55,456 nucleotides of DNA from Bacteroidota bacterium (GTDB lineage Bacteria > Bacteroidota > Bacteroidia > Palsa-948): the NCBI GenBank assembly GCA_023251675.1, contig JAHEYJ010000003.1:1-55456 (forward strand), in the 5' to 3' direction. Each line of letters starts with the position of its first letter. Within the stretch, counting starts at the first letter, position 1. Positions 1 to 16,658 of the stretch are shown here, in pieces. Below the pieces are notes generated by a model. The model was not told the origin of the DNA. It searched no databases and was given only the letters and a program-made list of their open reading frames with translations. A program made the position numbers and the translations under genes.

Positions 1-104
1 ACTATAGACCTCATCAATCACTTAATGGACAAACACCAATAGAATACAAAAAACAAAATCAATTAAAAATCAATCAAATCACTAACTTTGAATTGGCACT
101 ATAA
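1..104 (+). CDS. IS3-family transposase OrfB, C-terminal end (partial, runs off window start)
   Basis: Frame from position 3 reads YRPHQSLNGQTPIEYKKQNQLKINQITNFELAL*, matching the RPHxSLxxxTP C-terminal motif of the IS3 integrase core. Not in the ORF track. Confidence 0.8.
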   Translation, partial: YRPHQSLNGQTPIEYKKQNQLKINQITNFELAL

Positions 105-120
105 AAAGGGATGCTTACCA
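1..120 (+). mobile_element. Right end of an IS3-family insertion sequence
   Basis: Transposase stop at 102-104 is followed by AAAGGGATGCTTAC(CA), resembling an IS3 terminal inverted repeat. Exact end 118-120 is uncertain. Confidence 0.65.
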
Positions 121-335
121 TTACCCCACATGTGTTCAGGCATACTCTCGCAACACTGCTCCTTGAAAAGGATGTGGATATAAGATACATTCAATCTATC
201 CTTGGGCATAGTTCTATTATGACAACGCAAATTTATACTCATGTAAATCGCAAAAAACAAAGACAAATCCTTACGGCAAAGCATCCGAGAAAAGATTTTT
301 CCATGCCGGATTTAGTTATTCTGAATAAAGGATAA
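111..335 (+). pseudogene. Tyrosine recombinase, C-terminal fragment interrupted by IS3
   Basis: ITPHVFRHTLATLLLE...IQSILGHSSIMTTQIYTH contains HxxR, LGH and the catalytic Tyr. The N-terminal part is replaced by IS sequence, and the ATG at 111 lies in the IS end. Confidence 0.85.
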
Positions 336-345
336 CTAAGAATTA
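323..345 (+). repeat. Left inverted repeat (candidate recombination site) GAATAAAGGATAACTAAGAATTA
   Basis: 22/23 identical to the reverse complement of 3025-3047. Overlaps the recombinase stop codon and ends 5 nt before ATG 351. Confidence 0.9.
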
Positions 346-350
346 GCATT

Positions 351-1847
351 ATGTCAAATAAAAATGATTTGATCCCTTTTTCCGACACTGATATTGATTC
401 TATTGCAAATAATCCTTTTCGGAAAGAAATTGATTTTAGCAAGATTTTGCGTATAAAATTTCAAGCAAGAGATATCATCAGCTGTAAGTTATATGGAAAA
501 ATTACCAGTAATCACAACTTTAATAGAGCTAATCTTGTGCAATCTCACTTGTCGGAAATTACCTGTGAAAAAGGAAATTTTAAGTTGGTAGACATTAAGG
601 ATTGTTTTATAGGCAATTCTATTTTTCATAATACAAACTTTGATAGTGGCGCTTGGCTTGAAAATAATATTATCGAATGCAAATTCACCAACTGTCGCAT
701 TACTAATAAATCAATTACAAATACGCAATTTAAAAGGGTTTCATTTTTAAAAGTAGATTTCACAAATATAAATATCAAAGGCTGTGAATTTATCGAATGT
801 ATTTTTGAAGCATGTGTGACTTCAAATAAACTCTTCGAATCCTGTATATTACAAGATTGTGAAATAATTGATACAGTAATTCATATAGAAACAATTACCG
901 AGAATTTTGGACTTACAGCTACTCAAGTAAAGGGAGGAAAAATAATTATTAGTAAAAACAGGAACTCTGCAAAGACATTAACAAAGGAAGATTTAGCACA
1001 AATGTTAGAAAGTCCAGATTTCTTTGATGATATACCGAGATTTCGTTTGGCGTTTTTCCTCAATGGATTAGAAACCTTTTATTCAGATTTTTTTGAAAAT
1101 GCACTTCAAATTTTAAAATGGGCAGAGGGAATGGCAATCGCTTCAAGCTTTACCAATCTCCTTCAATCTTTTTCTAGGTATTTATTATTGCTATTCGATA
1201 AAAATATTTTATCTGTTCACCCATTACTGGTTATGCATCATAATACAGGAATGCTATCAAGACATATGGGTTCAAATTCTAATCCTCATTTTAATACAGT
1301 TATGGGAGTGCATATGACCTTATCTCGAATCGTTGAACAATATTTATCTGCATTAATTCATTTACTTGAAAATATTCAAAATCCAGTTAGATTTTTGGTT
1401 GTGGGGCCAATAGATATTAAATATTATGAAAAAGAACTTGCTTTTCTTTTTACGGGAAAGAGTGTAAGGATTACAAAAGTTATAAAACACAATTCTCCAA
1501 ATGAATTATTTGTTGCATGGTCAGAACTTTCTGGTGTGGCTTCACTTATTGCAATTGCTTTATCTACAAAATGTAATTTTGAGATTGAGAAAATCAAGAA
1601 AAAACAAAATGTGCATTCTAATACCAAGTCCTCAAAAAATAAAAATTTAATAAAGACAAATTCACTCGTTAATTTGTCCCCTATCTCATATTTCAAATTT
1701 TTAATGGGCTTCGAAAAGCAAGACAAAAATGAGTTTCAAATACAACTACTTTCAATACTTCCTGGAGATTTGTTTTTGAAACTTGGACTAAAAATTCATT
1801 CAAAACTGCTTGGTAAAATTTCTAGTATCATTAAAGAAATTTTATAA
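351..1847 (+). CDS. Pentapeptide-repeat protein with unknown C-terminal domain
   Basis: About residues 50-185 show 5-residue periodicity (NFNRANLVQSHLSE, CKFTNCRITN, CEFIECIFEAC). The C-terminal ~300 aa is not recognised. Confidence 0.8.
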   Translation: MSNKNDLIPFSDTDIDSIANNPFRKEIDFSKILRIKFQARDIISCKLYGKITSNHNFNRANLVQSHLSEITCEKGNFKLVDIKDCFIGNSIFHNTNFDSGAWLENNIIECKFTNCRITNKSITNTQFKRVSFLKVDFTNINIKGCEFIECIFEACVTSNKLFESCILQDCEIIDTVIHIETITENFGLTATQVKGGKIIISKNRNSAKTLTKEDLAQMLESPDFFDDIPRFRLAFFLNGLETFYSDFFENALQILKWAEGMAIASSFTNLLQSFSRYLLLLFDKNILSVHPLLVMHHNTGMLSRHMGSNSNPHFNTVMGVHMTLSRIVEQYLSALIHLLENIQNPVRFLVVGPIDIKYYEKELAFLFTGKSVRITKVIKHNSPNELFVAWSELSGVASLIAIALSTKCNFEIEKIKKKQNVHSNTKSSKNKNLIKTNSLVNLSPISYFKFLMGFEKQDKNEFQIQLLSILPGDLFLKLGLKIHSKLLGKISSIIKEIL

Positions 1848-1850
1848 TTC

Positions 1851-3023
1851 TTAATTGGTATATTTTTTTAATATCTCAATCCCTTCGAGTATATGAAAAG
1901 GTCTATTATAATAATTTACCCTTATGTGTTCTTCTCCGTTTTCAAATGCAAAACCCATATGCGATCCAAGTAGTATAGGCACTCCTTGCTGAACGCAAAA
2001 TCTTATTAGTTTATTTCTATGGAAAAAATGGTTTTTGCTGCCAAAATTAAGTCTAATAGCACCAAGGTACCCATTGGATGTAGGAATTACGTGCCAATTT
2101 TTTTCTCCTAATAACGACTGTTCAACTTTGGCTCTAATTTTCAGCACCTGCTGATTTGCAATATTCAACAGACTTCTAAACACATCATGTTTTTGTGAAT
2201 GATGATATGCTAACTGTAAACTAAAATAATCTATTGCTCCGCCATACATAGTCGTATGCTCTCGTATTGTAGAAGAAATTGTTTTAGGATGTATAATAAA
2301 GGCAATTCTTGGACCATTAATTCCTAAAGGCTTATAAAAATTTCTAAATCTTATTACTGAATCTAACCTTCCGGATAATCCGCTTAAAAGTGATGGAAAT
2401 TTTTGCTCTACAGCCTCATCAATAACTAAGAAATTGTTTTTCCCCAACATATCAATAATACTTCTTATGTATTTAATATCTTGATCTGTTCCCATTGAAG
2501 CTCTTGGCTGAGTAATCCACACAGCACAAGGAGAGTTATTTTTTATCAGTTTACGGCTAATAGAAAATTGGTAATTATTATGGGAGTATGTAGGAATATA
2601 AATATTTTTAAATCCTAATTTTTTTGACTGAAGAGATGTAGCAAAATATTCTGGGGTTTCAAAAATTATTTTATTTACTCCTAATGATTGTAAAGAAGCT
2701 AATATTATTTGACTGGCCAAGGTTGATGATTGACAGTATGTTATATTAGATAGGTCTAAACTCCGTCCATCTTCCCATTTTTCTATTAATCTTAAGATGG
2801 ATATAAATTTTCTTTTTAATCCGGGATGATTATTGCTGTGATACCAATTAATGTTTTTCCCTTCAAATTGTATTTTCGAAAAGAAACCTTCAAGATCAGA
2901 AGAAGTGTCTGACCAGCCAGAAATGTCTGCGACCAAACGATTTTTATCTAAGATTTGTTTCTTTAATAATTTATCTACTCTTTCGAAATCATCAGATGAA
3001 AAATATTTATTTACCAATTGCAT
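1851..3023 (-). CDS. PLP-dependent aminotransferase class I/II-like protein
   Basis: Fold-type I motifs: WITQPRASMG (NP-like), LVIDEA, NFYKPLGINGPRIAF (PLP Lys plus GxR) and C-terminal HIRVNY. Confidence 0.8.
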   Translation of the reverse strand: MQLVNKYFSSDDFERVDKLLKKQILDKNRLVADISGWSDTSSDLEGFFSKIQFEGKNINWYHSNNHPGLKRKFISILRLIEKWEDGRSLDLSNITYCQSSTLASQIILASLQSLGVNKIIFETPEYFATSLQSKKLGFKNIYIPTYSHNNYQFSISRKLIKNNSPCAVWITQPRASMGTDQDIKYIRSIIDMLGKNNFLVIDEAVEQKFPSLLSGLSGRLDSVIRFRNFYKPLGINGPRIAFIIHPKTISSTIREHTTMYGGAIDYFSLQLAYHHSQKHDVFRSLLNIANQQVLKIRAKVEQSLLGEKNWHVIPTSNGYLGAIRLNFGSKNHFFHRNKLIRFCVQQGVPILLGSHMGFAFENGEEHIRVNYYNRPFHILEGIEILKKYTN

Positions 3024-3024
3024 A

Positions 3025-3047
3025 TAATTCTTAGTTATCCGTTATTC
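3025..3047 (-). repeat. Right inverted repeat (candidate recombination site) GAATAACGGATAACTAAGAATTA
   Basis: Reverse complement of 323-345 with one mismatch. Ends 1 nt before the aminotransferase ATG at 3023. Confidence 0.9.
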
Positions 3048-3188
3048 GCGAGTAAAAGTATGAAATAATTTACTATACCCTTTGTTACTGCTGGAAAACC
3101 ACATCGCTCTGGACATGTATAATGAAAATTGATATACTGCTATAATAGGGTTTAGATTTCCTTATTATAAAATAACCAAAGTATATAT

Positions 3189-3692
3189 ATGCCTTTAGAA
3201 AAACCAATTCAAACAATAAGAAAAGCAATCAAAGGAACAGCCGAAAATGCCGCAGAAAAAGAATCTCTTGAAAAACCAACATCAAGACATTTTGAACAGA
3301 CTCTATCTTTGTATAAACAAATACGAGATGAGAGCCCCGAAATGCTTGAAAAACTCATAACCGTAACTGCTAAAGCAAAAGAGTTAAAAGATGAACTTGG
3401 CCCATCCTTAGATAGAACATTTAGGAAAGTATGGAGTGAATTGAATGAAAAATATAAAAACGAAATTATTACAAAGGTTGAAAAATTGGAAGATGAAAAT
3501 CTAATCTCCCAAGAATATAAACGTAAACTTGTAACTATTACCGGAAAAATATTTAATAAAATTAGTGAAGAATTCAGAAATGACCCACGCATAATTGTTG
3601 CTTTTACAGAGAAAGAAGAGCTTCTTGAAAAAGCCATTACGTTTTCTACCTCAGGTGCTCTTGAGCTATTTGATATCCCCGGATTAGTTTAA
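3189..3692 (+). CDS. Hypothetical helical, charged protein
   Basis: 167-aa ORF filling an AT-rich gap, with no recognised motif. Confidence 0.6.
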   Translation: MPLEKPIQTIRKAIKGTAENAAEKESLEKPTSRHFEQTLSLYKQIRDESPEMLEKLITVTAKAKELKDELGPSLDRTFRKVWSELNEKYKNEIITKVEKLEDENLISQEYKRKLVTITGKIFNKISEEFRNDPRIIVAFTEKEELLEKAITFSTSGALELFDIPGLV

Positions 3693-3744
3693 ATAAATCA
3701 ACATACTTCCCCGTCCGTATTTGCATAGGAATATCTTACTTATG

Positions 3745-4011
3745 TCATCGTGATCGGCCTTTTTCTTTGCTTTTGACTCGTGACCTTATTATTAAAGGTC
3801 TAATTTCGAGTTTCACGTCTTCTGGTCTAATTTTCTCCCACGTGTTTGTTCTATAATAACCTTGCCGTTCGTACCTCAAAGGAAATTCCTTAACGAATTT
3901 TTCAGCTTCTTCTCTTGTCATTGAACCATCTCCATGACAATCACAAGAGGCGGGAATTCCGTCTGTATTATTAAACACTATATACCTGGTATTTTTATTG
4001 TTGTTTTGCAT
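3745..4011 (-). CDS. Small hypothetical protein with basic C-terminal tail
   Basis: 88 aa, 22 bp downstream of the relaxase on the same strand. Its tail RSRVKSKEKGRSR resembles the relaxase tail. Confidence 0.65.
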   Translation of the reverse strand: MQNNNKNTRYIVFNNTDGIPASCDCHGDGSMTREEAEKFVKEFPLRYERQGYYRTNTWEKIRPEDVKLEIRPLIIRSRVKSKEKGRSR

Positions 4012-4033
4012 TTTGCTATTTTTAAAAATGATT

Positions 4034-4882
4034 TTATCTGTTACGATTAATGTTCTTTTCTTTAGACTTCCCTTTCATTTCACTTAGTTCTTTTCCTCTA
4101 TTTAACGACTTGTTTAATTCATCCAGTTTCTCCTCTGTAAATCCGATTCTTTTCAACCGGAATTTCTTGTTAGCAAAATACACTCCGGAAATTTTATCCC
4201 CTCGCTCATACACTTTCAGTTTACTTGCTTTCAGCAATTCAAAAAAACTTTCTCTGGAACCGGCTTGATTATAGCAGGAATTCAGAATCCCAATCAACTG
4301 CTCCTTCTGCGAAGCCCTCCCTGTCCGTAGTTTCATCTGGTATTCTTTGTCGGTAAGGAGGGCTTTGGCTTTTTTTGAGTGATCAACGACTGATTTTGAT
4401 AATTCCGGAAATGTTTTCTGTTGGAAATGTTGTATGTCTTTCTTCAGCGTTTGAAACTCCGCCTTAGTCATTCTGAGGGCTTTGCCGGTGTGGTATTCTA
4501 AGCCAGAGGCGCAGATGTGAATATGCCAATGATCTGTTGTATTCATATGGGGTATTGCAACATACATTCCTTTGGGATTTCTTAATTTCATGTATTCTCT
4601 CGCCATAGTTTGCATTTTTTCCAAAGAAATATTTTTTACATCATCTTTATGCCAGGAAAGAATCTCATGGGTGAGAGATATACTGTCTTTTCTTTTGATC
4701 TTCCGGTAATTCTCATTTTCTAAAAATTGTTTCACCCAGTTATCAATACTGTCGCCTCTGAGATTATGTGTAATGACAAAACTTTTATTCTGCTCATCAA
4801 ACAAACGATCCTTATCATTCATCATGTAATCAAGAAGCTGCCGGAAACTTGGTTTCTTTCGGGTTTTGATTTTAATGATCAT
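4034..4882 (-). CDS. Relaxase/mobilization nuclease (MOBP/VirD2-like HUH)
   Basis: N-terminal LLDYM (candidate catalytic Tyr), LTHEILSWH and HMNTTDHWHIHI (HUH). Start placed at ATG 4882, overlapping the upstream gene end. Confidence 0.85.
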   Translation of the reverse strand: MIIKIKTRKKPSFRQLLDYMMNDKDRLFDEQNKSFVITHNLRGDSIDNWVKQFLENENYRKIKRKDSISLTHEILSWHKDDVKNISLEKMQTMAREYMKLRNPKGMYVAIPHMNTTDHWHIHICASGLEYHTGKALRMTKAEFQTLKKDIQHFQQKTFPELSKSVVDHSKKAKALLTDKEYQMKLRTGRASQKEQLIGILNSCYNQAGSRESFFELLKASKLKVYERGDKISGVYFANKKFRLKRIGFTEEKLDELNKSLNRGKELSEMKGKSKEKNINRNR

Positions 4883-5357
4883 GGGAAGATAAAGGAGGGT
4901 TTCTAAAAATCTCACCTAACTGGGCTTCCAGTTTCACTATTCTTTTTTCTATGGCTGCGTATTTGTCATCCCGATCAAAGAAATAACGCTCCTTTTTACT
5001 GACTATGTTTTGAATCTCATTGAGGCAATCGGAAAGAACCTGTTCCAAACGGGCAATTTGGTCTTTGTTGGGGACTATATAGGTACGATTGAGGTAAGAT
5101 AGCGCTGCCTGCCGTATAAACCCTGTAATGGGCATTTTGTGCGTTTTAGCCCCGTATTGTATCCTGCCGTATTCCCCTTTCTCCTGTGAGAAGTTGACTA
5201 TGAATTCCGGCCTGCGCGAGCGCTGACCACGCTTGTATTTGGTGAGATAATCCTTCCGATACGCTTTCTTGGCCGCTTTAATTTCAGCATCAGTGCCGTT
5301 AAGCACTCCCTGATCTTCAAGGTAATCCCACATTTTACTATTGCTTCTTTTACTCAT
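4872..5357 (-). CDS. MobC-like relaxosome accessory protein
   Basis: Lies directly upstream of the relaxase. EYGRIQYGAKTHKMPITGFIRQAAL resembles a ribbon-helix-helix. ATG 5357 overlaps the T4CP stop. Confidence 0.6.
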   Translation of the reverse strand: MSKRSNSKMWDYLEDQGVLNGTDAEIKAAKKAYRKDYLTKYKRGQRSRRPEFIVNFSQEKGEYGRIQYGAKTHKMPITGFIRQAALSYLNRTYIVPNKDQIARLEQVLSDCLNEIQNIVSKKERYFFDRDDKYAAIEKRIVKLEAQLGEIFRNPPLSSHDH

Positions 5358-6792
5358 GAACTTTTTCAATAGCTGGTAATGGAAGTACCGGCACAGAGTC
5401 AAAACAGGTTTGCGAAATAGTTCTAGGAGCAGGGATCTGGCTTAACCTGCTGTAGCGGAAGTTTTTGTAAAAAGGTTTGAGTTTGGCAAGAATCGGAGGG
5501 CGGTTTCCCGCTATGATAATGGCTTTATTCTCCTTGAGCATCCTGACCTCGGAAGCAGTCATAAGTTCCCGGATTATTTTTTTGTCGTCCTTATCCCTGT
5601 ACTCATAACGACCGAGTATTTGTTCCAGTTCTCTTGAAGTTTCCAAATTCTGTCCGGCAAAGAACATTTTTACATAACAGTTGCTTCGTATGGCTTCTGC
5701 CTCATGCTTGCCGTATTGATGGACGCACTGATCATATGTCTGGTACAGAATTAATATGCCAGCTCGGTGCTTGCGGACATTTGAAACGGCTAATTGCAAG
5801 GTCGGCATGTTCAAACTGGAAGCCTCGTCAATCAGAAAGAAAATATTCTGCTCTTCTTCTTTTGGGAATCTTGAAAGCACAAATGAGAAAAACTGCTCAA
5901 AGAAAATGCTTGTAAGCGTTGAGAAATATTTTTGGTCTGCGACAGAGTTTTGGATAAATAATACCGTTGGTTTATCCCTGAACTGCTGCATATCAATATT
6001 ATCGGTGGAAGTGATCTTTGCCACCGATTCATCGGAAAAAATCTGGAGTGCCGCCTTTACCGTGGAAATCGTGCCGCTAATGACCTTGTCATCTGCGCTT
6101 AAGAAGCTCTTGTATTCATCCCAAAGGTTTTCATCGGCGTATTGGCTGAATAGCTTATCCACCTGCTCAGGGCTTGCTCCCATTTTATTGAGAAGCATGC
6201 GCACGGTATATAAGTTCTGATATTGCGGTTCTTGCTTTTTTAAAATACTGATGAGCATTGACAAAAGCTGGATAGCCGAGTTGTTCCAGAACGGGTCCTT
6301 GGCATTCTTTCCCAGTGCGTTTGAAATTAACATGGATGACACTTTGTTAATCTCGCTTGAAGTGTTAGCGCGTAAAAGAGGATTGAATCCGGATGAAGCG
6401 TCCGGCTTTGAAAAATTTAATTGCTTGACTATAAATCCCTGCTCTTTCAGGTAGCCGCTTGATTTTAAATAATTCTCTCCGCTTGGATCATTCACAATTA
6501 CGCTGGAATTTTTTAGAGAATACAGCGTGGGCAGTAGTATAGTTGTGGTTTTTCCCAAACCAGTGGAGGCAATGACAAGGGCATTTTGATAGCTCAATTT
6601 CAGCGTAAGGTTCTTATCACCTGTCAAACAAAATCCCTTATTCCATGGACTAAGCAAAGACCAGGAACTTGAAAATTCTGCTGTATAGGATTTGTTTTTA
6701 GAATTGGTAAGGACTGATTCTAAAATCTCAACGCCCGCTCTGAGAGTTCCTTCTATTATTGAGATGATAATGTCAAAGAATTTTGTAATCAT
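5350..6792 (-). CDS. Type IV coupling protein, VirD4/TraG family
   Basis: Walker A ASTGLGKTT, VNDPSGE, FNPL, DPFW, Walker B FLIDEA, and RKHRAGILILYQ. Start placed at ATG 6792 (MITKFF). Confidence 0.9.
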   Translation of the reverse strand: MITKFFDIIISIIEGTLRAGVEILESVLTNSKNKSYTAEFSSSWSLLSPWNKGFCLTGDKNLTLKLSYQNALVIASTGLGKTTTILLPTLYSLKNSSVIVNDPSGENYLKSSGYLKEQGFIVKQLNFSKPDASSGFNPLLRANTSSEINKVSSMLISNALGKNAKDPFWNNSAIQLLSMLISILKKQEPQYQNLYTVRMLLNKMGASPEQVDKLFSQYADENLWDEYKSFLSADDKVISGTISTVKAALQIFSDESVAKITSTDNIDMQQFRDKPTVLFIQNSVADQKYFSTLTSIFFEQFFSFVLSRFPKEEEQNIFFLIDEASSLNMPTLQLAVSNVRKHRAGILILYQTYDQCVHQYGKHEAEAIRSNCYVKMFFAGQNLETSRELEQILGRYEYRDKDDKKIIRELMTASEVRMLKENKAIIIAGNRPPILAKLKPFYKNFRYSRLSQIPAPRTISQTCFDSVPVLPLPAIEKVHE

Positions 6793-6805
6793 GTTGATGG
6801 TTATT

Positions 6806-6934
6806 TTATTTAATAGTATTTTTAAGCAAGTCATTAATAAAATGAAGAATGCCTTCCAATATTCTGCCAACTCCCCAGAGAAGTATTAAGAACAGTTTGG
6901 CGATTGTTTTGACGAGTTTCTCTATTACTTCCAT
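6806..6934 (-). CDS. Small hydrophobic 42-aa protein (not in ORF track)
   Basis: MEVIEKLVKTIAKLFLILLWGVGRILEGILHFINDLLKNTIK* fills the gap between 6950 and the T4CP start, on the same strand. Confidence 0.55.
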   Translation of the reverse strand: MEVIEKLVKTIAKLFLILLWGVGRILEGILHFINDLLKNTIK

Positions 6935-6949
6935 CGTTTTAGTATTTTT

Positions 6950-7660
6950 TTAATCGTTGATGTTTGCTGAAATGTGAACGGTCGCGCCTTTGTCCTCTAA
7001 AAGTTTCTTGTAGAATGCCGTGGCGATTGTAAATGCTTTGTCGCTGTAAGTATCAATCGGCTGGAAAATGAAATACACTTCTATGCCGCCAAGGTTCTGT
7101 AATGTTTCCAACTGATCAAACTGTTTTCTGATTGCTTCGGGATCAGTTTGAAGCAGCGCAAGTGTTTTTTTGTTGTAGAAAGATAAACTGCTCGTATTTT
7201 CCATCAGGTCTGAATAGATAAGCAGGTATTTCTTGTCGGCTTTGCTTTGGGCGAGCCGGTTAAGTTCATTTGCTATGGGAAGATAAATGGAAGAATTCCT
7301 TTTGCCGACAATGGCCTGTTCTGCCTGCGCGAGAATGCCGGCAACACTTTTCTGAAACTGTTTTACCTCATCCTCCCTCTGAAATTCATTGTTCGTCCAC
7401 TGGTTTGCAGTTTCAAGTTTTATTTCCTCCGCGGGATTGAAACTTACCTGCGTGATGTCGGAGAAATGAAACACCGCCCCGTTCCACTTGTTTTGAGCAA
7501 AGTCATACAGGCGCAGAACATCTGCCACGCTTGGCTGGGCAAGCTCTTGATCGGTAATATCCCGAAATACCGCTACTTCTGTAGTAGAGGTTTGGCTTGT
7601 CATCCAGGCAATTATGAAAATGGTTATGCTAAAGAGCAGAATCAGGATTGTTGTTTTCAT
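6950..7660 (-). CDS. Membrane-anchored protein with possible vWA-like alpha/beta domain
   Basis: N-terminal hydrophobic anchor, then VAVFRDIT, SSIYLPI and LLIYSDLMEN. Confidence 0.55.
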   Translation of the reverse strand: MKTTILILLFSITIFIIAWMTSQTSTTEVAVFRDITDQELAQPSVADVLRLYDFAQNKWNGAVFHFSDITQVSFNPAEEIKLETANQWTNNEFQREDEVKQFQKSVAGILAQAEQAIVGKRNSSIYLPIANELNRLAQSKADKKYLLIYSDLMENTSSLSFYNKKTLALLQTDPEAIRKQFDQLETLQNLGGIEVYFIFQPIDTYSDKAFTIATAFYKKLLEDKGATVHISANIND

Positions 7661-8735
7661 GCGTTTTGTATTTAGTGATGATTGATTGAAAGTTTATATT
7701 TGGAATGTCCAGTTCGGGTATTTCATCGTTAAAACAATCGGGGAAATCCTTTCTGCCCATGCGATTCGCTTTTTTGTATTCATCCACGGATTCCCTGTAC
7801 ATTATTTTTATCCGCTCAATGCAGTACTCTGCTTCCATCAAAGCGCCTATGTACTTACTCAGTGTTTCATTTTTTACTTTTTCATGCTCCTGCAGCTCAT
7901 TTTCTTTTTGTTGTTTTTCCCTTTCAAGCTTTTCAAGCAGCTTCAGCTTATGAAGGCTCTTCCTGTTCTGCTCAATTTCTTCCCTAGTCGGATGGTAGTA
8001 CCATGTTGCAAAGGGGGATATCAGGAAGAAAACTAAGTTAAAGACGGTAAAATAAAAGGGGTTTACCTCTACTCCAATGCGTTGCATAAACGTTGCGCGC
8101 AGTGATGCAATAACTGAAGAAACAATAGCCATGCAAGCAGCCGATACAATGACGACAAGCCATTTTTCAAGTTTTGTTTTTGCATCTTTATATTTCCTGC
8201 CTGCAAAATGCGCTCCCAAGCTTACGCACAGGGAAACCGAGGCTGAAATCATAAGGCAGGAGATCAGGTTATCCCCTGTTACCTGAAAGGCTTTTGTGTT
8301 CAGGTACACCTCGCCGATAAAAATTCCGAAGCCGATCCAAAGTGTTGTCCTGATGCGGGAAGCAATCTCGCTGGGGTTATAGAGAGAAAGTTCCTGTTTT
8401 AATATGCAGATATGCTTTTCTAAATTATTTATGACCTCCCCCAGTTTCTTGCTAACAGCATCTGCCAGATCCTTATACTTTCTGCCTTCGGCAAGTTGTG
8501 ATATCGGCTGGATGATCTGCAGCACTTTCAATACGAGGTTTTCGTACTTCGACTTGAAATGGATATGATGAACCAGTTTGTCTTTTTTTACTAAGGGCTG
8601 GGCTGGTTCTTTCATCCCATCGTGCTTGCCATCGTTATATGCCTCCGCTTTAACCCGGGCATGCTCTGTTTCAATCATGTTTTCAACGTCATGACTTGTT
8701 ATTGTTTTTTTAATTGGAATGATCGATGGTTTCAT
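7629..8735 (-). CDS. Multi-pass membrane protein with coiled-coil flanks
   Basis: About four hydrophobic segments in the middle and K/E-rich helices on both sides. Overlaps the next gene. Confidence 0.7.
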   Translation of the reverse strand: MKPSIIPIKKTITSHDVENMIETEHARVKAEAYNDGKHDGMKEPAQPLVKKDKLVHHIHFKSKYENLVLKVLQIIQPISQLAEGRKYKDLADAVSKKLGEVINNLEKHICILKQELSLYNPSEIASRIRTTLWIGFGIFIGEVYLNTKAFQVTGDNLISCLMISASVSLCVSLGAHFAGRKYKDAKTKLEKWLVVIVSAACMAIVSSVIASLRATFMQRIGVEVNPFYFTVFNLVFFLISPFATWYYHPTREEIEQNRKSLHKLKLLEKLEREKQQKENELQEHEKVKNETLSKYIGALMEAEYCIERIKIMYRESVDEYKKANRMGRKDFPDCFNDEIPELDIPNINFQSIITKYKTHENNNPDSAL

Positions 8736-8747
8736 TTGATTTTGTTT

Positions 8748-9098
8748 TTAACGATTAATTGAAATTTCTTTTGCTTTCTGATTTTTTCTCTCGCGGATTT
8801 TATCGACATCTTCCGCTCTTCGTTCTCGTTTTGCGAGTTCTATGGCGTATTTTTCAAATCCCATCATTATTGTCTGCCATGAAGCCGTAGGAGGGCATAC
8901 CGGAAAATTATCGCAACTTGAAGTAAAATATGTATGATCTCCATTTCTGAATTCACGCTGGCCAACATATCCTAGCCACTTCTTCGATCCATCCGGCATG
9001 ACCTGCCTAACGGCACAATAGCCGCTGCCTGAAGGAAATGGAACGAATTCCAGCTTTATTTCCTGTGGTTCACTTTGCTCCTGTGATTTTCTTTTCAT
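8748..9098 (-). CDS. Small hypothetical protein (paralog family A, with C-terminal motif)
   Basis: Aligns by eye with 9546-9866 and 9871-10272. Ends RAEDVDKIRERKNQKAKEISINR. Confidence 0.7.
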   Translation of the reverse strand: MKRKSQEQSEPQEIKLEFVPFPSGSGYCAVRQVMPDGSKKWLGYVGQREFRNGDHTYFTSSCDNFPVCPPTASWQTIMMGFEKYAIELAKRERRAEDVDKIRERKNQKAKEISINR

Positions 9099-9134
9099 GC
9101 TCTCTTTGATTTTTATGGTTGCTGTTTGATTTAT

Positions 9135-9530
9135 TTATCGGAATAATTCCCGGCCTTTATTTTTAAAATATTTCTTTTGCCTGATATTTTTTACATCCTG
9201 TTCCCTGTCACTTTTCCCCGCAGCAAGGCCAACTACTGAATCCAAGACACCGCGGGAATGCTTCATGCTGTTTTCCATGAATACCTCCGCATCCTGTTGC
9301 ATCGAGTGGTTTTTTTTCTGAGGGCTTTTACTCTGTCTTATTTGATTTATTTCCTTTTCCCTTTTGGAAGAAAGATCCGACAGGTCTTTGGTTAAATTGA
9401 AAGTTATTTCCTGAAGCTTCTCTTTTACTGTCGGATTTTCTTTTCTTTCCCTGATTTGCTTTTGTATGGCGAGCTCCGGATTTTTTGGCTCATCCCATTT
9501 CTCTTTAGGTGTTTGGACTATTTTTCTCAT
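9135..9530 (-). CDS. Small charged hypothetical protein with two copies of the C-terminal motif
   Basis: Contains REKEINQIR internally and ends REQDVKNIRQKKYFKNKGRELFR. Confidence 0.65.
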   Translation of the reverse strand: MRKIVQTPKEKWDEPKNPELAIQKQIRERKENPTVKEKLQEITFNLTKDLSDLSSKREKEINQIRQSKSPQKKNHSMQQDAEVFMENSMKHSRGVLDSVVGLAAGKSDREQDVKNIRQKKYFKNKGRELFR

Positions 9531-9545
9531 GACTGTAATTTTTAA

Positions 9546-9866
9546 TTAATGAGTGATTGCCAGTTTGAGTTCCTTGAGATTCCTTTGCTCTCGTATCGCT
9601 TCAATTTCTTCTGCCCTTTCTATTTGCTCCAGCCTTCTCGCGTACCGCTCAAATTCATTCTCTACATCCGACCATGATGTGGTTTTGAGAAATGCATCTT
9701 CTGAATCCCTATTGTGGGAGACATATTCCACACAACCATCCTCGCTGCACTCTTGTGAAACAGAGCCGATGATTTCTTTCTTCCCATTAGATAATAGTCT
9801 GCTCACGATAATGCAATCCACGGCACTGAGCGGTACGCTGAACCGGGCATAAGTTTTTGCTTCCAT
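9546..9866 (-). CDS. Small hypothetical protein (paralog family A)
   Basis: NGKKEIIGSV...TTSWSDVENEFERYA, ending RAEEIEAIREQRNLKELKLAITH. Confidence 0.7.
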   Translation of the reverse strand: MEAKTYARFSVPLSAVDCIIVSRLLSNGKKEIIGSVSQECSEDGCVEYVSHNRDSEDAFLKTTSWSDVENEFERYARRLEQIERAEEIEAIREQRNLKELKLAITH

Positions 9867-9870
9867 GTTT

Positions 9871-10272
9871 CTATCGTTCTATTTGTTGTCCTTTATCTTT
9901 TTTTGAACTGCGAACATTCTTGAGTTCTCCTACCCGTGATTCTCCAATACTTTCCTTTTCAACTTGGTTTTGAGGAGTTTCAGGTGCAAGAATTTTTTCA
10001 TTCTGGATGAATTGATTTTTTAGTTCGTAAAGTTTTTCAGTTGGTTCGAATATGGCTTTGCCTTCGCGATCAACTGCTGTGTAGATGTATTTGTTCGCAT
10101 CTTGATTGTAGGTTTTAAAAACCTTTCCCATGAAGACTTTTTTACCATCTACCCTGGTCGCTACAGTCATAAAATGCTGTCCTTGTTTAGCATAAGCGTA
10201 TTCTGTGAATACGATTCTGCTATAAGCGAAAGGAGATCGCTGTTTTTTGGTTTGATCTTGTTGTGTTTCCAT
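9871..10272 (-). CDS. Small hypothetical protein (paralog family A, more divergent)
   Basis: DGKKVFMGKV...YTAVDREG...PTEKLYELKNQF, ending RVGELKNVRSSKKDKGQQIER. Confidence 0.7.
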   Translation of the reverse strand: METQQDQTKKQRSPFAYSRIVFTEYAYAKQGQHFMTVATRVDGKKVFMGKVFKTYNQDANKYIYTAVDREGKAIFEPTEKLYELKNQFIQNEKILAPETPQNQVEKESIGESRVGELKNVRSSKKDKGQQIER

Positions 10273-10309
10273 TGTGATTTGTTTTTATTGGTTGATTTAT
10301 AATTGATTG

Positions 10310-11695
10310 TTATTTCTCCAGTGATATTCCGTTGGATGATTTTCTCAGATCGTGTAATTCGTTCTGCCTTGATTCATTTTGCTCTGGGAATACGGAAAAA
10401 TTTTTGGCGGTCTGCCCGATTATTTTATCCGAAACATAATGGTCAGATAAAATTTTTGTACTTGAGTGCTGTGAAATAATCTGCGCGTTTGAAATTCCGA
10501 TGGCCGCAGATAATGAGCTTAGGTAGGTTTTACGGAGATTTTTATAAGTAGCCTCTTTTGAAAAGCTTAATTGCTTCCAGTAGTGGGTAAAGGAACGCGC
10601 CATAAATTTCCGCATGGTCTCCCTGTTCATCGTTTCGTCATCCGCCAGAATATATTTATCACTTCCCTTGAATTTCTCGTAGCCGAGTTCAATCAGTAAT
10701 TGTTTTAGATCTACTGTTATCGGCACGGATATTTTCTTGGGATTCTTCTCTAATCTCCCCTGCTGGCGTGATACTTTGAAGTCTGTTGCATTTACCGCTA
10801 ACAGTTCTCCCTGATTATTTAATACAATGTCTTTCCAGCGCATTTGAATAATTTCCTCGCTTCTGCGTCCGGTCATAAGCCCTAATTGTATTCCGTCTTT
10901 GACCCATGGGCGGTAAAAGTTTTTTATTTCTTTTCCTACTTTTTGAAGCCCAAGTTCAAGTATCTGCACTATGTCAAGCAAGGCATTGTATTCCTCTTTC
11001 GTTAAAACCTCTATGTTGTGCGTCTCAAGTTTTCTTACAACCCCTGCAAAGGGATTGATAGTCGCAAGCCCCTCTTGAATTAAGTGGTTATAGAGGGAAT
11101 ACATTCTCGTCATCCTGATGTTGTATGATCTCGCTCCCAGATTTTTTGACTCGATGTTCGCGTGGAATTTTCCGACCATAGGCTGGTCAACCTGCTTCGC
11201 CGTGAGTTCCTTTACGTTGTAGTGTTTCTTTAAACTCTTTATGAACTCGATAAATATTTTTTCTACCTCCCTGCAATATTTTTCTCCGCGCTTTCTGCGC
11301 TTGTGCTCCGGTGTGGATTCTCCTCCCCTGAGAAAATCCACGTACCGGCTCATGGCCTCAATGAGAAGCAGCGAACCCTCCTCTTTTTCCAGAGTGGGTA
11401 CTTGGAATTTTTCCCTGTGATGTTTGCCCTCTTTGACCTCTTGATAAAAAGCTGCTGATTGTGCCAATGCTTCTTTTAAAATTCTCGTGTCTAACTTCAT
11501 TGTCCTACGCTTGTCTGAATTTTTCTCGTATTCGACTGCCTTAAAAAATAAATCCGCTGGATGTAGACATTTTTGAAGCGGTTCTCCGGTTGCTTTGCAT
11601 GTATCAAATACAAGGGTGTTGCAGTACTTGCAGTAAACCTTCAAGCCGAATTCTCTTTTGTCTTTTGGTATGTACAGCGGTTTCATTTTTTGCAT
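10310..11695 (-). CDS. Tyrosine integrase of the element
   Basis: LMTGRRSEEI (catalytic Arg), YKNLRKTY (HxxR variant), SQHSS...SDHY (His/Tyr), and INPF in the core-binding domain. Confidence 0.9.
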   Translation of the reverse strand: MQKMKPLYIPKDKREFGLKVYCKYCNTLVFDTCKATGEPLQKCLHPADLFFKAVEYEKNSDKRRTMKLDTRILKEALAQSAAFYQEVKEGKHHREKFQVPTLEKEEGSLLLIEAMSRYVDFLRGGESTPEHKRRKRGEKYCREVEKIFIEFIKSLKKHYNVKELTAKQVDQPMVGKFHANIESKNLGARSYNIRMTRMYSLYNHLIQEGLATINPFAGVVRKLETHNIEVLTKEEYNALLDIVQILELGLQKVGKEIKNFYRPWVKDGIQLGLMTGRRSEEIIQMRWKDIVLNNQGELLAVNATDFKVSRQQGRLEKNPKKISVPITVDLKQLLIELGYEKFKGSDKYILADDETMNRETMRKFMARSFTHYWKQLSFSKEATYKNLRKTYLSSLSAAIGISNAQIISQHSSTKILSDHYVSDKIIGQTAKNFSVFPEQNESRQNELHDLRKSSNGISLEK

Positions 11696-11720
11696 CGTGC
11701 GAGTCTAACTCGTACTTTAT

Positions 11721-12092
11721 TTATTGTCCAGTAAGTTCCTTGTTGATTTCATTAAGGAAACGTTGCTGAGTTTTACTTTTCGGAATTGCCTTTTGTTTTA
11801 CAGTAGGTTTCTTCTTGTCTTGCTCAATTTCATCAAGGGCAGATTGAAGTTGAGCGAAGAGATTCATTTCGGATTTCAAAACTTCCATCCAGCGGTCTTG
11901 GTATTTTGCTTTGAGGTGGTTTATTCTTTCCTGTAGTTGAGCACGTTTAAACTGCGTTGCCAGCACATAGCGCGTTTTACCGGCTCCAAGAATTTCTATC
12001 TTATTCCTCTGTAGGTAATCAGATAAAGACCTGGAGTCCCGGTAAGGAAGCTCGGACTTTAAATCGCGGAAATATATTATCTCGATATTCAT
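11721..12092 (-). CDS. Putative excisionase / winged-helix DNA-binding protein
   Basis: Sits directly upstream of the integrase. The N-terminus (YFRDLKSELPYRDSRSLSDYL...GKTRYV) resembles MerR/Xis-type HTH. Confidence 0.5.
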   Translation of the reverse strand: MNIEIIYFRDLKSELPYRDSRSLSDYLQRNKIEILGAGKTRYVLATQFKRAQLQERINHLKAKYQDRWMEVLKSEMNLFAQLQSALDEIEQDKKKPTVKQKAIPKSKTQQRFLNEINKELTGQ

Positions 12093-12269
12093 TTACCCGC
12101 TTTCCTTTTTGATTTCTTCTTTTTTCTTTTAGGAAAAATTTTTTTACAAAAATTCTCTCTCAGGAGTGCATCGAGATTTAAATACCTGGCCTTGCTCTTT
12201 TGGAGCATCTTGAAAATTTGATCTTCGGATAATTTCTGTTTTTTCATTTGACTTAGGTTTTTTCTAAGG

Positions 12270-12277
12270 CAAATTTA
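12270..12277 (-). promoter_or_regulatory. Candidate Bacteroidota -7 promoter element (TAAATTTG) for the xis-int-mob operon
   Basis: Exact TAnnTTTG match in the intergenic gap, pointing into the leftward operon. Confidence 0.45.
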
Positions 12278-12290
12278 ACCAAAGGAAAAT

Positions 12291-12959
12291 TTAAAAGCGA
12301 GGAGTTTGTTCACTGAAAATTATTTTTAGTTCCGATGAACTTTCAGTGAACATTTTGGAGAGAACTATAAATATGCAGTTATTTAAAGTGTAGTTTGGAT
12401 TCTTTTCCTGCGCTTCTCTTACTTTTTTTCTCAATTCATTAGCTTCTTTTTTGATACTCCCAGAATTAAGAGGGTCTTCAGGATTATGACTTAGAAAAAG
12501 TGCGGGTATAATCATGTGCGGGCGTTGATCTTTGTGTATGATTCCTGCCCACCTCAGGGCTTCAAGAAAATATGCAGTATGTTTATTTTTTCTGTTATGA
12601 AGTTTAAATCCTTTTGGCAAAGCTTCATTGCGAATTCCGTCAATGTCAAAATTGTTTTCAAATTCATTGAATTGCTGCCGGACAATAATATTTTCTCTTT
12701 TAGTAAAAACATTATAGATAGCATTCAATATATTCTTGTCTTTAATCTTTAGAATTATTTTTTCTTTTGATTCTAGTAAAAATTCTTTTTGTGGATTATT
12801 TCTATAAGAGTGTTTTTCTATACTTATAAGTATCTTGTTTGCCAATAAAACCTCTTTGCTCAATTTTAAATGAAGCCGATTAATTTTAACATGGCTCCTC
12901 TTTAACTCTGCGAGTTCCGATTTAAGATTATATGTATGATCTTCTTGCATGACACACAC
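12291..12959 (-). CDS. Hypothetical protein (weak RteC-like resemblance)
   Basis: 222-aa ORF. YFLEALRWAGII loosely recalls RteC-type regulators. Start uncertain. Confidence 0.45.
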   Translation of the reverse strand: MCVMQEDHTYNLKSELAELKRSHVKINRLHLKLSKEVLLANKILISIEKHSYRNNPQKEFLLESKEKIILKIKDKNILNAIYNVFTKRENIIVRQQFNEFENNFDIDGIRNEALPKGFKLHNRKNKHTAYFLEALRWAGIIHKDQRPHMIIPALFLSHNPEDPLNSGSIKKEANELRKKVREAQEKNPNYTLNNCIFIVLSKMFTESSSELKIIFSEQTPRF

Positions 12960-12973
12960 TTATTGTGGTCTTT

Positions 12974-13105
12974 GCAAGAAACAGGGTTGGGCTTGACAAA
13001 CGAAAATCTATATAGATAATTAGACTGTTTGTAGCAAGAAGCCTTATTTCTTGCGCAGACCTCGGGGAAAACGCCTCGGGAACCCGCCATTGCAAGTGGC
13101 GGGTT
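12974..13105. other. Cluster of inverted and direct repeats, candidate oriT
   Basis: GCAAGAAA(12974)...TTTCTTGC(13054) with inner ACAAAC/GTTTGT arms and palindrome ATCTATATAGAT. CCTCGGG occurs twice. Hairpin AACCCGCCA/TGGCGGGTT at 13081-13105. Confidence 0.45.
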
Positions 13106-13109
13106 AAAT

Positions 13110-13139
13110 TTTGCCCAATACTTTTTCCCTGTATCTTTG
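13110..13139 (+). promoter_or_regulatory. Candidate Bacteroidota promoter TTTG-N18-TATCTTTG
   Basis: -33 and -7 consensus elements upstream of ORF 13185. Confidence 0.45.
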
Positions 13140-13184
13140 TCTATCGGAATGCAAGATAGTTCATTATAAAATATAATACAAAAA

Positions 13185-14432
13185 ATGCTGTGGAATTCCA
13201 GAGAATTCCTGTTTCTTCCTATGGATAAAGAAGAATTGGCAAATAGAAGAAAAGTATATATGAGATTTGTTTTGGATCATCTCCAAGACAATATGAATAT
13301 ATTAATTGAAAAAGATATTTATTCAATTAATTCCTTAATAGAAAGTCCAAAAAAATTTACTCGTTTTTCAGAAGGTTCAGAAAAAACATTCCGTGATGCT
13401 TTCAAACTTTTAAAGACCCCAGCGGATAAAACTTTAGAAACAATACAAAAAGTATTTAAAATTCCCATTTCATTTGGGGAATTTGAAGCCGAATTAGAAA
13501 AACCGAATTCTAAATACGCAAAATACAATCAAGAAGCGGGAAAAGAATCTTTAGAACAAATTAAAGAAGTTAAAGAGAGAAAAAATGTTAAAGAAAAGAA
13601 GAAACAAGTAGATTTTCATGATGACTTTCAAAAAGCTGTTTACACTTATCATAAAAAATTCAAAAATGATTGTTTTACTTGGGAAAGTGTAAATAACAAA
13701 ATAATTGAAGACTTATACATCTTAATAAAGTTAATGTATATCAAAAGAAAGTATGTAGACTGCATAGAATATATTCACGAACTAGGTCCATATATCCCTT
13801 GGAATTGGCGTTACTGGCTACATTCATTACAAGCATTTTGCTTGTTCAATCTAAAGGAATATAAACATGCGTTAAAAAATATACAAATTCCATATGATGA
13901 AAATCTTGATCTCAGTAATCACAATCATGACTTTGTTGACGATGAATTTGACAATGACGATGATAACACCTTTAATGGCATTAATCTACTTCTTGAAGGA
14001 GTAATTTATTACTTTCTAAATGATGCAAATCATGCATTAGAGAGATTTGATACAGCAATAAGTGTAGCACTTAATGACAGCTTATATACGATGTCGTTTA
14101 TGCAAGATGATTTTGAACTACATAAATCCGATAATAATTTACTGCTTTGTTTATATAGCAGCAAATATTTAATGTGTTTAGAATTAAATCTAATTCGGGA
14201 CGCAAATGATACGCTATCAAAATATGCTGATCTGCGAAAAAATTGCATTGATTGTTGGCACAAACATTCACACGCTGAAATAAAATTTCACTGGAAAAAT
14301 AAAAAAAAGAAAATAGCAAAAGAAGCAACCAAGTTAATGCTGAAAGAACATTTACTTTGGGTTGCGAATGGATTTCAGAAAGAATTAAATGTTGTAGGTA
14401 TAGAAGTTTATGAAGACTATGAAAATTTGTAA
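13185..14432 (+). CDS. TPR-containing protein, possible N-terminal HTH
   Basis: TPR-like helices (LQAFCLFNLKEYKHALKNI, LLEGVIYYFLNDANHALERFDTAI). PADKTLETIQKVFKI resembles the end of an Xre HTH. Confidence 0.6.
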   Translation: MLWNSREFLFLPMDKEELANRRKVYMRFVLDHLQDNMNILIEKDIYSINSLIESPKKFTRFSEGSEKTFRDAFKLLKTPADKTLETIQKVFKIPISFGEFEAELEKPNSKYAKYNQEAGKESLEQIKEVKERKNVKEKKKQVDFHDDFQKAVYTYHKKFKNDCFTWESVNNKIIEDLYILIKLMYIKRKYVDCIEYIHELGPYIPWNWRYWLHSLQAFCLFNLKEYKHALKNIQIPYDENLDLSNHNHDFVDDEFDNDDDNTFNGINLLLEGVIYYFLNDANHALERFDTAISVALNDSLYTMSFMQDDFELHKSDNNLLLCLYSSKYLMCLELNLIRDANDTLSKYADLRKNCIDCWHKHSHAEIKFHWKNKKKKIAKEATKLMLKEHLLWVANGFQKELNVVGIEVYEDYENL

Positions 14433-14459
14433 TTCAACAATTATTTTTAATTGTATTTG

Positions 14460-14479
14460 AGTGCGGTTTTAAGTGCGGT
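14460..14479. repeat. Tandem AGTGCGGT direct repeats, candidate integrase arm-type sites
   Basis: Two copies (14460-14467, 14472-14479), ~80 bp inside the att junction. Confidence 0.5.
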
Positions 14480-14559
14480 CTTTTGCTGGCTTTTGTGGGG
14501 ATTTGCAAAGTTGAATATTGAAAAACAGAGAAGATTTAAGGAAAGTAAAACTAAATTTC

Positions 14560-14601
14560 GCTTGTAAGGCAGATGCTCTGAACCAGCTGAGCTAAACTCC
14601 C
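14560..14601 (-). tRNA. tRNA-Val(TAC) 5' half only (att-site fragment)
   Basis: GGGAGTTTAGCTCAGCTGGTTCAGAGCATCTGCCTTACAAGC, then unrelated AT-rich sequence with no T-arm or acceptor 3' strand. Confidence 0.85.
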
Positions 14602-14645
14602 AATATTTTTTTTCCTCTCCGAACTTTCCGTTTCCACTCGATATT

Positions 14646-14680
14646 CTCTGAACCATCCGTCAGCTGACGGATAAACTCCC
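14646..14680 (-). pseudogene. Second degenerate tRNA-Val 5' fragment containing an 18-bp palindrome
   Basis: GGGAGTTTA-TCCGTCAGCTGACGGA-TGGTTCAGAG versus GGGAGTTTA-GCTCAGC-TGGTTCAGAG. A TATATTTG promoter element lies at 14692-14699. Confidence 0.65.
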
Positions 14681-14728
14681 AAAAAGGAGTGCAAATATAG
14701 ATAGTTTGGCAAAACGAGAAAAAAGAAA

Positions 14729-15775: not shown

Positions 15776-15822
15776 TTGTCCAAATGTAGAAAAATTCAAA
15801 CTTGATTTAGTATTTTCGCCCT

Positions 15823-16641: not shown

Positions 16642-16658
16642 TTCCTGAATTCTGTACG

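Follow-up and report, generated by a model that had tools for sequence, protein, structure and literature searches.

The window analysed here is a 55,456-nucleotide (nt) stretch of DNA from a Bacteroidota bacterium (assembly GCA_023251675.1, contig JAHEYJ010000003.1, positions 1 to 55,456), which begins at the start of the contig. Near its left end two convergent genes are enclosed by a pair of 23-nt inverted repeats, immediately downstream of the remnant of a tyrosine recombinase gene. We conclude that these repeats are probably a pair of inverted recombination core sites, and that they belong to a conserved, widespread and apparently undescribed inversion module whose two arms may be expressed alternately. 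An earlier note on this DNA, made from its letters alone, had proposed a recombinase-driven inversion switch at this place.

The inverted repeats and the genes between them

The two copies of the repeat, at 323-345 and 3025-3047, match at 22 of 23 positions (96% complementary) and have 2679 nt between them. When up to three mismatches are allowed, the repeat pattern occurs exactly twice in the 55-kb window, an outcome that none of 100 dinucleotide shuffles gave, and in the whole 3.4-Mb assembly it is found at just these two places. The repeat is confirmed as real, non-random and unique in the genome, and the earlier note's claim of a 22/23 inverted repeat bracketing two genes is borne out by repeat search, shuffles and genome count alike. 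The features of this region are as follows.

1 to 119, plus strand: right end of an insertion sequence (IS), in which frame 3 stops at 100-102, and which truncates the recombinase gene
120 to 335, plus strand: remnant of a Xer-like tyrosine recombinase gene, consisting of the last ~71 codons and the stop codon of an enzyme of ~315 amino acids (aa), with ~250 N-terminal codons gone
311 to 322, plus strand: extra inverted half-site that pairs with 329-340, present solely at the recombinase-side site of the window
323 to 347, plus strand: predicted proximal recombination site, with outer arm GAATAAAGGATAA (323-335), 7-nt centre CTAAGAA (336-342) and inner arm TTAGC (343-347)
351 to 1847, plus strand: arm 1 (open reading frame ORF1), 498 aa, with an N-terminal pentapeptide-repeat beta-helix (PF13599, E 1.4e-10) and a C-terminal domain of unmatched fold; the protein has a conserved KHNSPNEL motif
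1851 to 3023, minus strand: arm 2 (ORF2), 390 aa, a pyridoxal phosphate (PLP)-dependent protein of aminotransferase fold, class I/II, HisC/GntC-like (PF00155, E 8.8e-5, passing the cutoff)
3023 to 3047, minus strand: predicted distal recombination site, inverted, with outer arm GAATAACGGATAA (3047-3035), centre CTAAGAA (3034-3028) and inner arm TTATA (3027-3023)
3053 to 3060, minus strand: TACTTTTA, a candidate promoter element only, with one mismatch to TAnnTTTG and pointing into the segment

The two genes lie tail to tail, 3 bp apart, and their ATG start codons are placed just inside the repeats, 5 nt (ORF1) and 1 nt (ORF2) past the repeat ends, exactly as first described. The overlap of the left repeat with the stop codon of the recombinase gene also holds, the TAA at 333-335 falling within the outer arm of the proximal site. 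Both sites have the identical centre CTAAGAA and are inverted to each other. A DNA search among 61 relatives with window positions 105-3200 found only the window itself and one 55-nt match of chance level.

A recombinase family linked to paired sites

The fragment encoded at 111-335 matches the last 44 positions of the PF00589 profile (127-170 of 172, E 1.2e-15), and the remnant retains the HxxR motif and the region of the tyrosine nucleophile (HVFRH and QIYTHV are both present). It is 97% identical to residues 251-313 of P0001, a relative of 319 aa. The best NCBIfam matches of the fragment are XerC/XerD, all far under cutoff because just 74 aa remain; cut at base 120, the window gene lacks the SAM-like N-terminal domain as well as the first catalytic Arg and Lys. 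The best 120 longer relatives are proteins of ~315 aa that combine a SAM-like with a Phage_integrase domain; their conservation extends to KHPRKDFSM, beyond which the tails vary. Ten of these 120 proteins end in N-x-G, as encoded by the AAYnnnGGATAA of the site.

Using P0001, we sampled 401 genomes of the class and 401 of the phylum (the samples partly overlap) and fetched up to 20 kb around each member of the family. A family member is carried by 11 of the class genomes and 7 of the phylum genomes. The recombinase gene lies directly upstream of the first site in all 18 sampled genome loci, where the site, GGATAAC-5 nt-ATTAT, is found at most about 45 nt past the recombinase stop codon. Three of these loci (L103, L105 and L127) reach a contig edge right after the first site, and each of the 15 loci with enough downstream DNA has a second, inverted site 1.7-5.6 kb downstream. 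The earlier note had asked whether such sites recur downstream of homologs of the recombinase fragment with varying convergent cargo, and they do so in all 15. The same succession of recombinase, site, cargo and site is present in L009, in the metagenome loci L113, L114 and L115, and twice in L117. Among ten metagenome loci that were found with an alignment of ORF1 homologs, the recombinase adjoins the site in eight, the remaining two being short contigs.

The layout was also seen outside Bacteroidota, at 7983-12764 of the Aliarcobacter cryaerophilus plasmid pACRY43158 (L133), with the sites TGATAATAGGTAATTATGA at 8926-8944 and 12746-12764; RefSeq annotates the plasmid with a 'tyrosine-type recombinase/integrase' and ordinary genes, and nothing more. 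Two further Aliarcobacter plasmids also carry a member of the recombinase family.

A profile scan of genome contigs with the recombinase alignment (patterns TTQIYTHV and KERxIQICN), from which 80 loci were kept, was dominated by generic Xer genes. Among the matches listed for these 80 loci, L005, L006, L007 and L009 are at 42-51% identity, and paired sites occur in L009 alone; L005 has no second site, and L006 and L007 have no site at all. In L005, from a Desulfosporosinus metagenome-assembled genome (~8880-8935), the 48%-identical recombinase ends in INKG, and a single perfect palindrome, AATAAAGGATAAT-AGCTA-ATTATCCTTTATT, stands at its stop codon. A scan of viral contigs with the 18-nt consensus site gave two single matches and no pairs.

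Site architecture and locus-specific centres

When the pairs are aligned, each site resolves into (A)AATAAAGGATAA as its outer arm, CTnnnnA as its 7-nt centre and TTAT(C) as its inner arm, an architecture conserved in 21 pairs; the short form of the site is GGATAA-7 nt-TTAT, or GATAA-7-TTAT. Two arms around a spacer are the layout expected of the core site of a tyrosine recombinase, as in sites of the Xer, Cre and Flp types. The 7-nt centre is identical within every one of the 21 pairs, and 14 distinct centres exist among the loci, for example CTAAATA, CTAAAGA, CTGAATA, CTGTCAA, CTATTAA, CTGTATA, CTTAATA, CTAGGGA and, in the window, CTAAGAA. Centres that are matched in pairs and divergent between loci are predicted by a homology requirement in strand exchange, and would not be predicted by a shared operator. 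Together with the 15 paired loci, the matched centres support the idea, first put forward for the window alone, that the repeats are sites of the adjacent tyrosine recombinase family.

One locus, L117, has two cassettes and one recombinase, and the centres of the two cassettes are CTCTTTA and CTAAACA, a difference that would prevent recombination between them. Between these cassettes (2746-4483 and 5897-8566) lies an ORF of 436 aa, directed at the second one and, by eye, similar to an amino-acid permease. Another locus, L128 (G464), has a perfect repeat pair at 4987-6772 around a 1.8-kb segment without any ORF of at least 90 aa; its cargo may be decayed or non-coding. The repeat reaches the first 3-4 codons of both arms in L113 (315-351 and 2964-3000; ATGGATGATAAT) and in L129 (4958 and 10402; ATGCCTAA), so that unrelated proteins share their first residues.

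The earlier note had described an internal dyad at each site of the window. The left one stands: the RNA of positions 300-352 forms a 12-bp hairpin of -14.4 kcal/mol (z -4.2), matched by none of 200 shuffles. The right one is unsupported by folding (-0.9 kcal/mol, z +0.97). The left dyad contains the extra half-site at 311-322, which could be an accessory binding site, an RNA hairpin, or a signal for attenuation or for the mRNA end. By eye, a similar half-site is present in about half of the related loci, exclusively at the recombinase-side site; copies like TTAGTTATCC occur 4-8 nt before the outer arm at the proximal sites of L096, L097, L098, L104, L105, L009, L109, L117, L118 and L126. A dif-like 11-6-11 site was also weighed, in which the crossover would fall in the 6-nt GAATAA that separates the two halves of the left dyad; we discarded it because the distal sites, and about half of the loci, have no outer half-site. 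The CTnnnnA block varies between loci and is yet matched within pairs, which places the predicted crossover there and not in GAATAA.

Inversion of the segment

Direct evidence of inversion comes from two different human-gut assemblies, in which the loci L114 and L115 are ~99.5% identical and differ solely by the inversion of 2750 bp between 26-nt repeats (5943-5968 and 8667-8692). The inversion is exact at the repeats, and a third locus, L116, is in the L115 state. Both orientations are found more widely for the same types of cargo. The pentapeptide arm is proximal in the window and in L109, L110, L118, L115 and L116; in L101, L113 and L114 it is the aminotransferase arm that takes the proximal place. 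The pair of a methyltransferase and a GNAT-like protein has one orientation in L097 and the other in L099 and L132. The pair of a glycosyltransferase and an Mrr-type nucleoside triphosphatase (NTPase) is oriented in L098 and L100 (arms assigned by Pfam) in a way that appears opposite to L129 (arm types read by eye from the ORF starts). Furthermore, in nine of the 24 clusters of the ORF1 family the longest contig is 2.65-2.77 kb, about the size of the segment, which hints that assemblies break at both repeats.

Inversion is well supported by these comparisons for the recombinase-linked cassette family. At the level of the family, therefore, the inversion of the enclosed segment that the earlier note had proposed is upheld by the two orientations and by the exact L114/L115 inversion. 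The findings that were to speak against it, homologous loci that lack paired sites or that are never inverted, are not what the sampled genome loci show: all 15 with enough downstream DNA are paired. L114 and L115 are inverted to each other.

Cargo arms

The model of ORF1 has a predicted local distance difference test score (pLDDT) of 78.7, and its fold matches in the PDB (by Foldseek) are solely the beta-helices of Qnr, MfpA, AlbG and HalA. The HalA model itself matches at 32 bits against a cutoff of 250, in the repeat region only. A comparison of residues 200-498 with the ESM Atlas gave no lead for the C-terminal domain (scores at most 0.78, template-modelling score at most 0.30). The ORF1 family comprises 24 clusters in 5.8 billion proteins. 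For ORF2, the NCBIfam matches to HisC and GntC are far under the cutoffs, and by eye the protein keeps the Lys at which HisC-type enzymes bind PLP.

In L101 the pentapeptide arm is 28% and the aminotransferase arm 39% identical to its counterpart in the window, and in the ten metagenome loci found with the ORF1 alignment an aminotransferase gene converges on the ORF1 homolog wherever the contig allows. By their sequences, the two arms of the window are a conserved partner pair and not random cargo. The earlier idea of a swap of whole unrelated genes is thus right as to whole genes and wrong as to arbitrary, unrelated cargo. The arms belong to different families (in the window PF13599 versus PF00155, and likewise in other loci) and are not paralogous variants of one surface protein. 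In all nine loci that were compared the spacing between the arms is -20 to +5 nt, from overlap to near contact, leaving no room for a terminator, and the start codons in related loci lie at most ~20 nt from the site. Other cassettes of the family hold the following arms.

GT2 or GT4/GT1 glycosyltransferases versus a protein of 1056-1148 aa with Mrr_cat and P-loop NTPase domains (plus tetratricopeptide repeats, TPR), which we read as Avs-like by architecture
S-adenosylmethionine methyltransferase, with or without a SET domain, versus a GNAT-like membrane protein
Spermidine-synthase-like enzyme versus a small unknown protein
UbiA prenyltransferase versus a small unknown protein
YbaK (YbaK/EbsC) and ATP-grasp proteins versus an 803-aa hypothetical protein (pACRY43158)

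The arms at 7434-10880 of L098 and 171-3341 of L100 encode proteins of 1148 and 1056 aa, respectively, with an Mrr-type nuclease and a P-loop/STAND-like NTPase, plus TPR in L100; the opposite arms are glycosyltransferases, one with a weak 'GT4-conflict' match. PADLOC gave no matches for either arm of the window, and among ten cargo proteins of six related loci nine were without a match and one had a weak mREase_II match (E 0.0016).

Proposed mechanism and alternative explanations

We propose that a Xer-like tyrosine recombinase (~315 aa), encoded just upstream and with its stop codon in or beside the first site, would bind the GGATAA and TTAT(C) arms and exchange strands over the 7-nt centre, a reaction that would require an identical centre in both sites. 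The segment of 1.7-5.6 kb between the sites would flip as a result. In this segment the two arms converge until their 3' ends meet, begin just within the sites and probably have no promoters of their own, and each flip would swap the arm facing the recombinase side with the arm facing the outer flank. If one flank alone supplies effective transcription, the arms would be expressed alternately, in the window the pentapeptide-repeat protein versus the PLP enzyme. That the adjacent recombinase catalyses the inversion is what we infer from the chemistry of its family. Because the arms start bases from the sites and meet at their 3' ends, transcription must enter from outside, and on balance we lean toward an either/or expression of the two arms.

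The source of transcription is the less clear part of this proposal. The sequence TAnnTTTG is the -7 promoter motif of Bacteroidota. The earlier note had pointed to an element of this kind outside the right repeat; the sequence TACTTTTA is indeed present there, at a distance comparable to that of exact boxes in four distal flanks of related loci, with one mismatch to the consensus, and is a candidate promoter element. The fixed outside promoter on the right that had been built on it is likewise a candidate, exact distal boxes being found in four of the 21 pairs, weakly above shuffles; transcription may enter from this flank or from the recombinase side. A scan for sigma-70 promoters did no better than shuffles (21 versus 21.3).

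Several points weigh against an inversion module with alternating arms. First, inversion of the window's own copy was not seen in two groundwater-metagenome runs of one study, whose contigs show one orientation; this comparison covers the contigs of the two runs only, assembled contigs drop rare variants, and one run may be the window's own source. Second, the link between recombinase and inversion comes from the chemistry of the family. Third, an exact, inward TAnnTTTG occurs within 60 nt outside the distal site in four of 21 pairs (L097, L099, L102 and L115) and outside the proximal site in none, and 70 of 2000 shuffles reach four boxes; the observed number is weakly above shuffles. Fourth, the recombinase gene is co-directional with the proximal arm in most loci, and several loci have an outside gene directed at the distal arm; read-through from the recombinase gene is possible, and both arms might be transcribed at once. 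Fifth, arms that are conserved as pairs could work together and not alternately. Finally, in the gut lineage of L114-L116 the recombinase gene is divergent from the cassette, and no single wiring applies to all loci.

A more far-reaching form of the proposal is possible, though we hold it only tentatively. In this form the cassettes would be an undescribed class of toggles, in Bacteroidota and on Campylobacterota plasmids, with antagonistic enzyme and effector arms that are never co-expressed, orthogonal centres, and cassette exchange by double crossover. The enzyme arm would modify small molecules or glycans, the effector arm would be an Avs-like Mrr-NTPase-TPR protein or a pentapeptide-repeat protein, and the population would split into two states. 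A single recombinase would serve one or more cassettes, and exchange between chromosomes and mobile elements would make the frame a natural equivalent of recombinase-mediated cassette exchange.

Much less probable than the main proposal is that the module serves mainly as a platform for cassette exchange, by double crossover with an incoming cassette that is similarly flanked, and that inversion is a by-product. Natural recombinase-mediated cassette exchange would account for so varied a cargo within an unchanging frame. On the recombinase tree, cargo types are as scattered as shuffled labels (14 changes; shuffles average 14.2 and go no lower than 10), and sister recombinases with different cargo (SH-like approximate likelihood ratio test, SH-aLRT, 94-98) are seen in L131/L132, in L129 versus L128 and L130, in L100/L101 and in P0001/L096. 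Seven loci of different genera have the common centre CTAAATA with five cargo types, and copies are present both on mobile elements (the window, the Aliarcobacter plasmid, and L096, which lies beside ArdC-like genes by eye) and in chromosomal neighbourhoods. However, no donor-recipient pair with the same cassette in different flanks was found except for plain inversion, and the same cargo type occurs with many centres, which cassette exchange alone does not predict. The recombinase tree is moreover a quick one of 20 rows with two long branches, and multi-cassette loci followed by differential loss could yield the same scatter of cargo. Cassette exchange is in any case compatible with inversion and has some support.

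We consider it unlikely that the repeats are a common leader or operator of two co-expressed partner genes that act together, with flipping that has no regulatory role. The position of the repeats beside both start codons would suit such an operator, as would the conservation of the arms as pairs (28-39% identity), the extension of the repeat into the first codons of both arms in L113 and L129, and the outside genes that read toward both ends in several loci. An operator gives no account, however, of centres that are matched in 21 of 21 pairs and yet differ between loci, of the constant linkage to one recombinase family, or of the exact inversion between L114 and L115; and abutting convergent genes without terminators would collide under strong transcription of both. 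That the repeats are transposon ends, or match by chance, is very improbable even though inverted repeats do enclose a discrete segment on a mobile element, since Pfam scans of the window and related loci found no transposase domain in the cargo between the repeats, the genome has a single cassette (two sites), none of 100 shuffles yields two matches, and the same site stands beside the same recombinase family with unrelated cargo in all 15 genome loci.

Comparison with known systems

On the basis of layout, the closest known system is the Xer1/vpma locus of Mycoplasma agalactiae, in which inversions at sites in 5' leaders link silent whole ORFs to a unique promoter, and in which knockouts are phase-locked (PMC2268961). 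The likeness, shared with vsp of M. bovis and vsa of M. pulmonis, is that of a Xer-like recombinase beside the locus and of sites directly before the start codons of whole genes. The differences are also clear. Xer1/vpma has several paralogous surface-lipoprotein genes and one promoter, whereas each site pair described here encloses two non-homologous convergent arms; moreover, both the cargo and the 7-nt centres vary by locus, the carriers belong to Bacteroidota and Campylobacterota, and the arms are often an enzyme versus a non-enzyme.

Short inverted repeats with a nearby recombinase give ON/OFF heterogeneity in fimS, with FimB/FimE, and in the invertons of Bacteroides. What flips in those invertible-promoter systems is a promoter, a few hundred bp long, with the genes on either side fixed, whereas here the genes flip and any promoter is fixed outside. 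In the R64 shufflon the tyrosine recombinase Rci inverts segments at short inverted sites. Its several nested segments provide alternative C-terminal parts for one gene, in contrast to the two whole gene arms per segment found here. An integron, too, has a tyrosine recombinase beside a site, followed by promoterless, exchangeable cargo. Unlike integrons, however, the present loci have sites that are not attC-like, in inverted pairs with GATAA-7-TTAT around two convergent arms, and integron-integrase models score 62 and 42 bits on the recombinase fragment against cutoffs of 265 and 435. Inverted or heterospecific sites serve cassette exchange in engineered systems (PMC3333864).

Recombinase-adjacent inverted repeats also flip coding DNA in the 'epigenetic invertons' of type I restriction-modification hsdS genes, where they create subpopulations (PMC7672463, PMC9881135). 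These and other gene-altering inversions swap parts of one coding sequence (CDS) with repeats inside the genes, whereas the repeats here are upstream of whole genes. The pipeline of PMC9881135 demands at least one repeat strictly inside a CDS, and may not have captured the recombinase-linked two-arm layout, which is often without such a repeat. A full-text search of the literature found no description of the site, of the recombinase family as an invertase, or of two-arm invertible cassettes, its coverage ending before the candidate lists in the supplements of PMC9881135; the terms looked for in PMC11892184 are absent from it.

Within known phase variation by site-specific inversion, the module is unusual in its whole, non-homologous partner modules, its orthogonal, locus-specific centres, its multi-cassette loci, and its presence in two phyla and on mobile elements. 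If the family works as proposed, it offers a compact and portable route to two cell states from one locus by flipping whole, unrelated gene modules in place of promoters or parts of genes. The recombinase together with the GATAA-7-TTAT site would then provide a straightforward marker with which to mine for hundreds of unknown two-arm pairs, and the naturally orthogonal centres under one recombinase (two in L117) would be parts for synthetic inversion logic. Some of the cassettes look conflict-related, for example those with Mrr-nuclease/NTPase/TPR proteins opposite glycosyltransferases.

The copy in the window

The recombinase gene of the window had been taken to start at 111; it turns out that the remnant starts at 120 and that the ATG at 111 belongs to the end of an IS. 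Bases 1-119 are letter-identical at six contig ends of the assembly (C195, C128, C102, C83, C59 and C221), all of which diverge at base 120; it follows that the recombinase gene was interrupted by an IS. Over 1-120 the word depth is 28.9, against 10.9 elsewhere, with loose ends at 119/120. By eye, the translation of 1-119 in frame 3 resembles the C-terminal end of a DDE transposase. The body of the IS was not located in the assembly, where its end recurs at the six contig ends. A tblastn search of the assembly (96% complete) with full-length relatives found residues 251-313 only, the other matches being paralogues of 25-34% identity; by this search the assembly holds no other member of the recombinase family.

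In the Logan contigs of the two metagenome runs, one contig of run X1 spans window positions 91-3600 collinearly and without joints, and none of the contigs runs from base 120 into an intact recombinase gene. The X1 contig has a G where the window has a T at position 2964, inside ORF2, and this is the sole difference between them. With a truncated recombinase, no other family member in the assembly and contigs in one orientation, the copy in the window has most likely become fixed in its present state, in which the pentapeptide arm faces the recombinase remnant. Transcription of such a locked copy, if any, would come from the IS or from the right flank. The odd gene pair would thereby be explained as the arms of a switch that was probably frozen by the IS insertion.

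The cassette is located at one end of an integrative mobilizable element, whose main features are as follows.

4034 to 11695, minus strand: backbone of the integrative mobilizable element (PF03432, PF02534 and PF00589 matches)
4034 to 4915, minus strand: relaxase (profile match)
5350 to 6870, minus strand: T4 coupling protein (profile match)
10310 to 11695, minus strand: second, unrelated tyrosine integrase, 461 aa (profile match)

The backbone also holds a 176-aa ORF and several ORFs without a Pfam match. A tRNA scan of positions 1-20000 found none, which leaves the ends and the attachment site of the element undefined. Of the phase-variable cargo on a mobile element that the earlier note had envisaged, the mobile element is thus real, given its relaxase, coupling protein and integrase, and current phase variation is what the truncated recombinase speaks against. 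A protein identical to ORF1 (cluster P0121) is recorded on a contig of 131,032 bases, as compared with the 55-kb contig of the window, and the assembly to which that longer contig belongs may bridge the IS.

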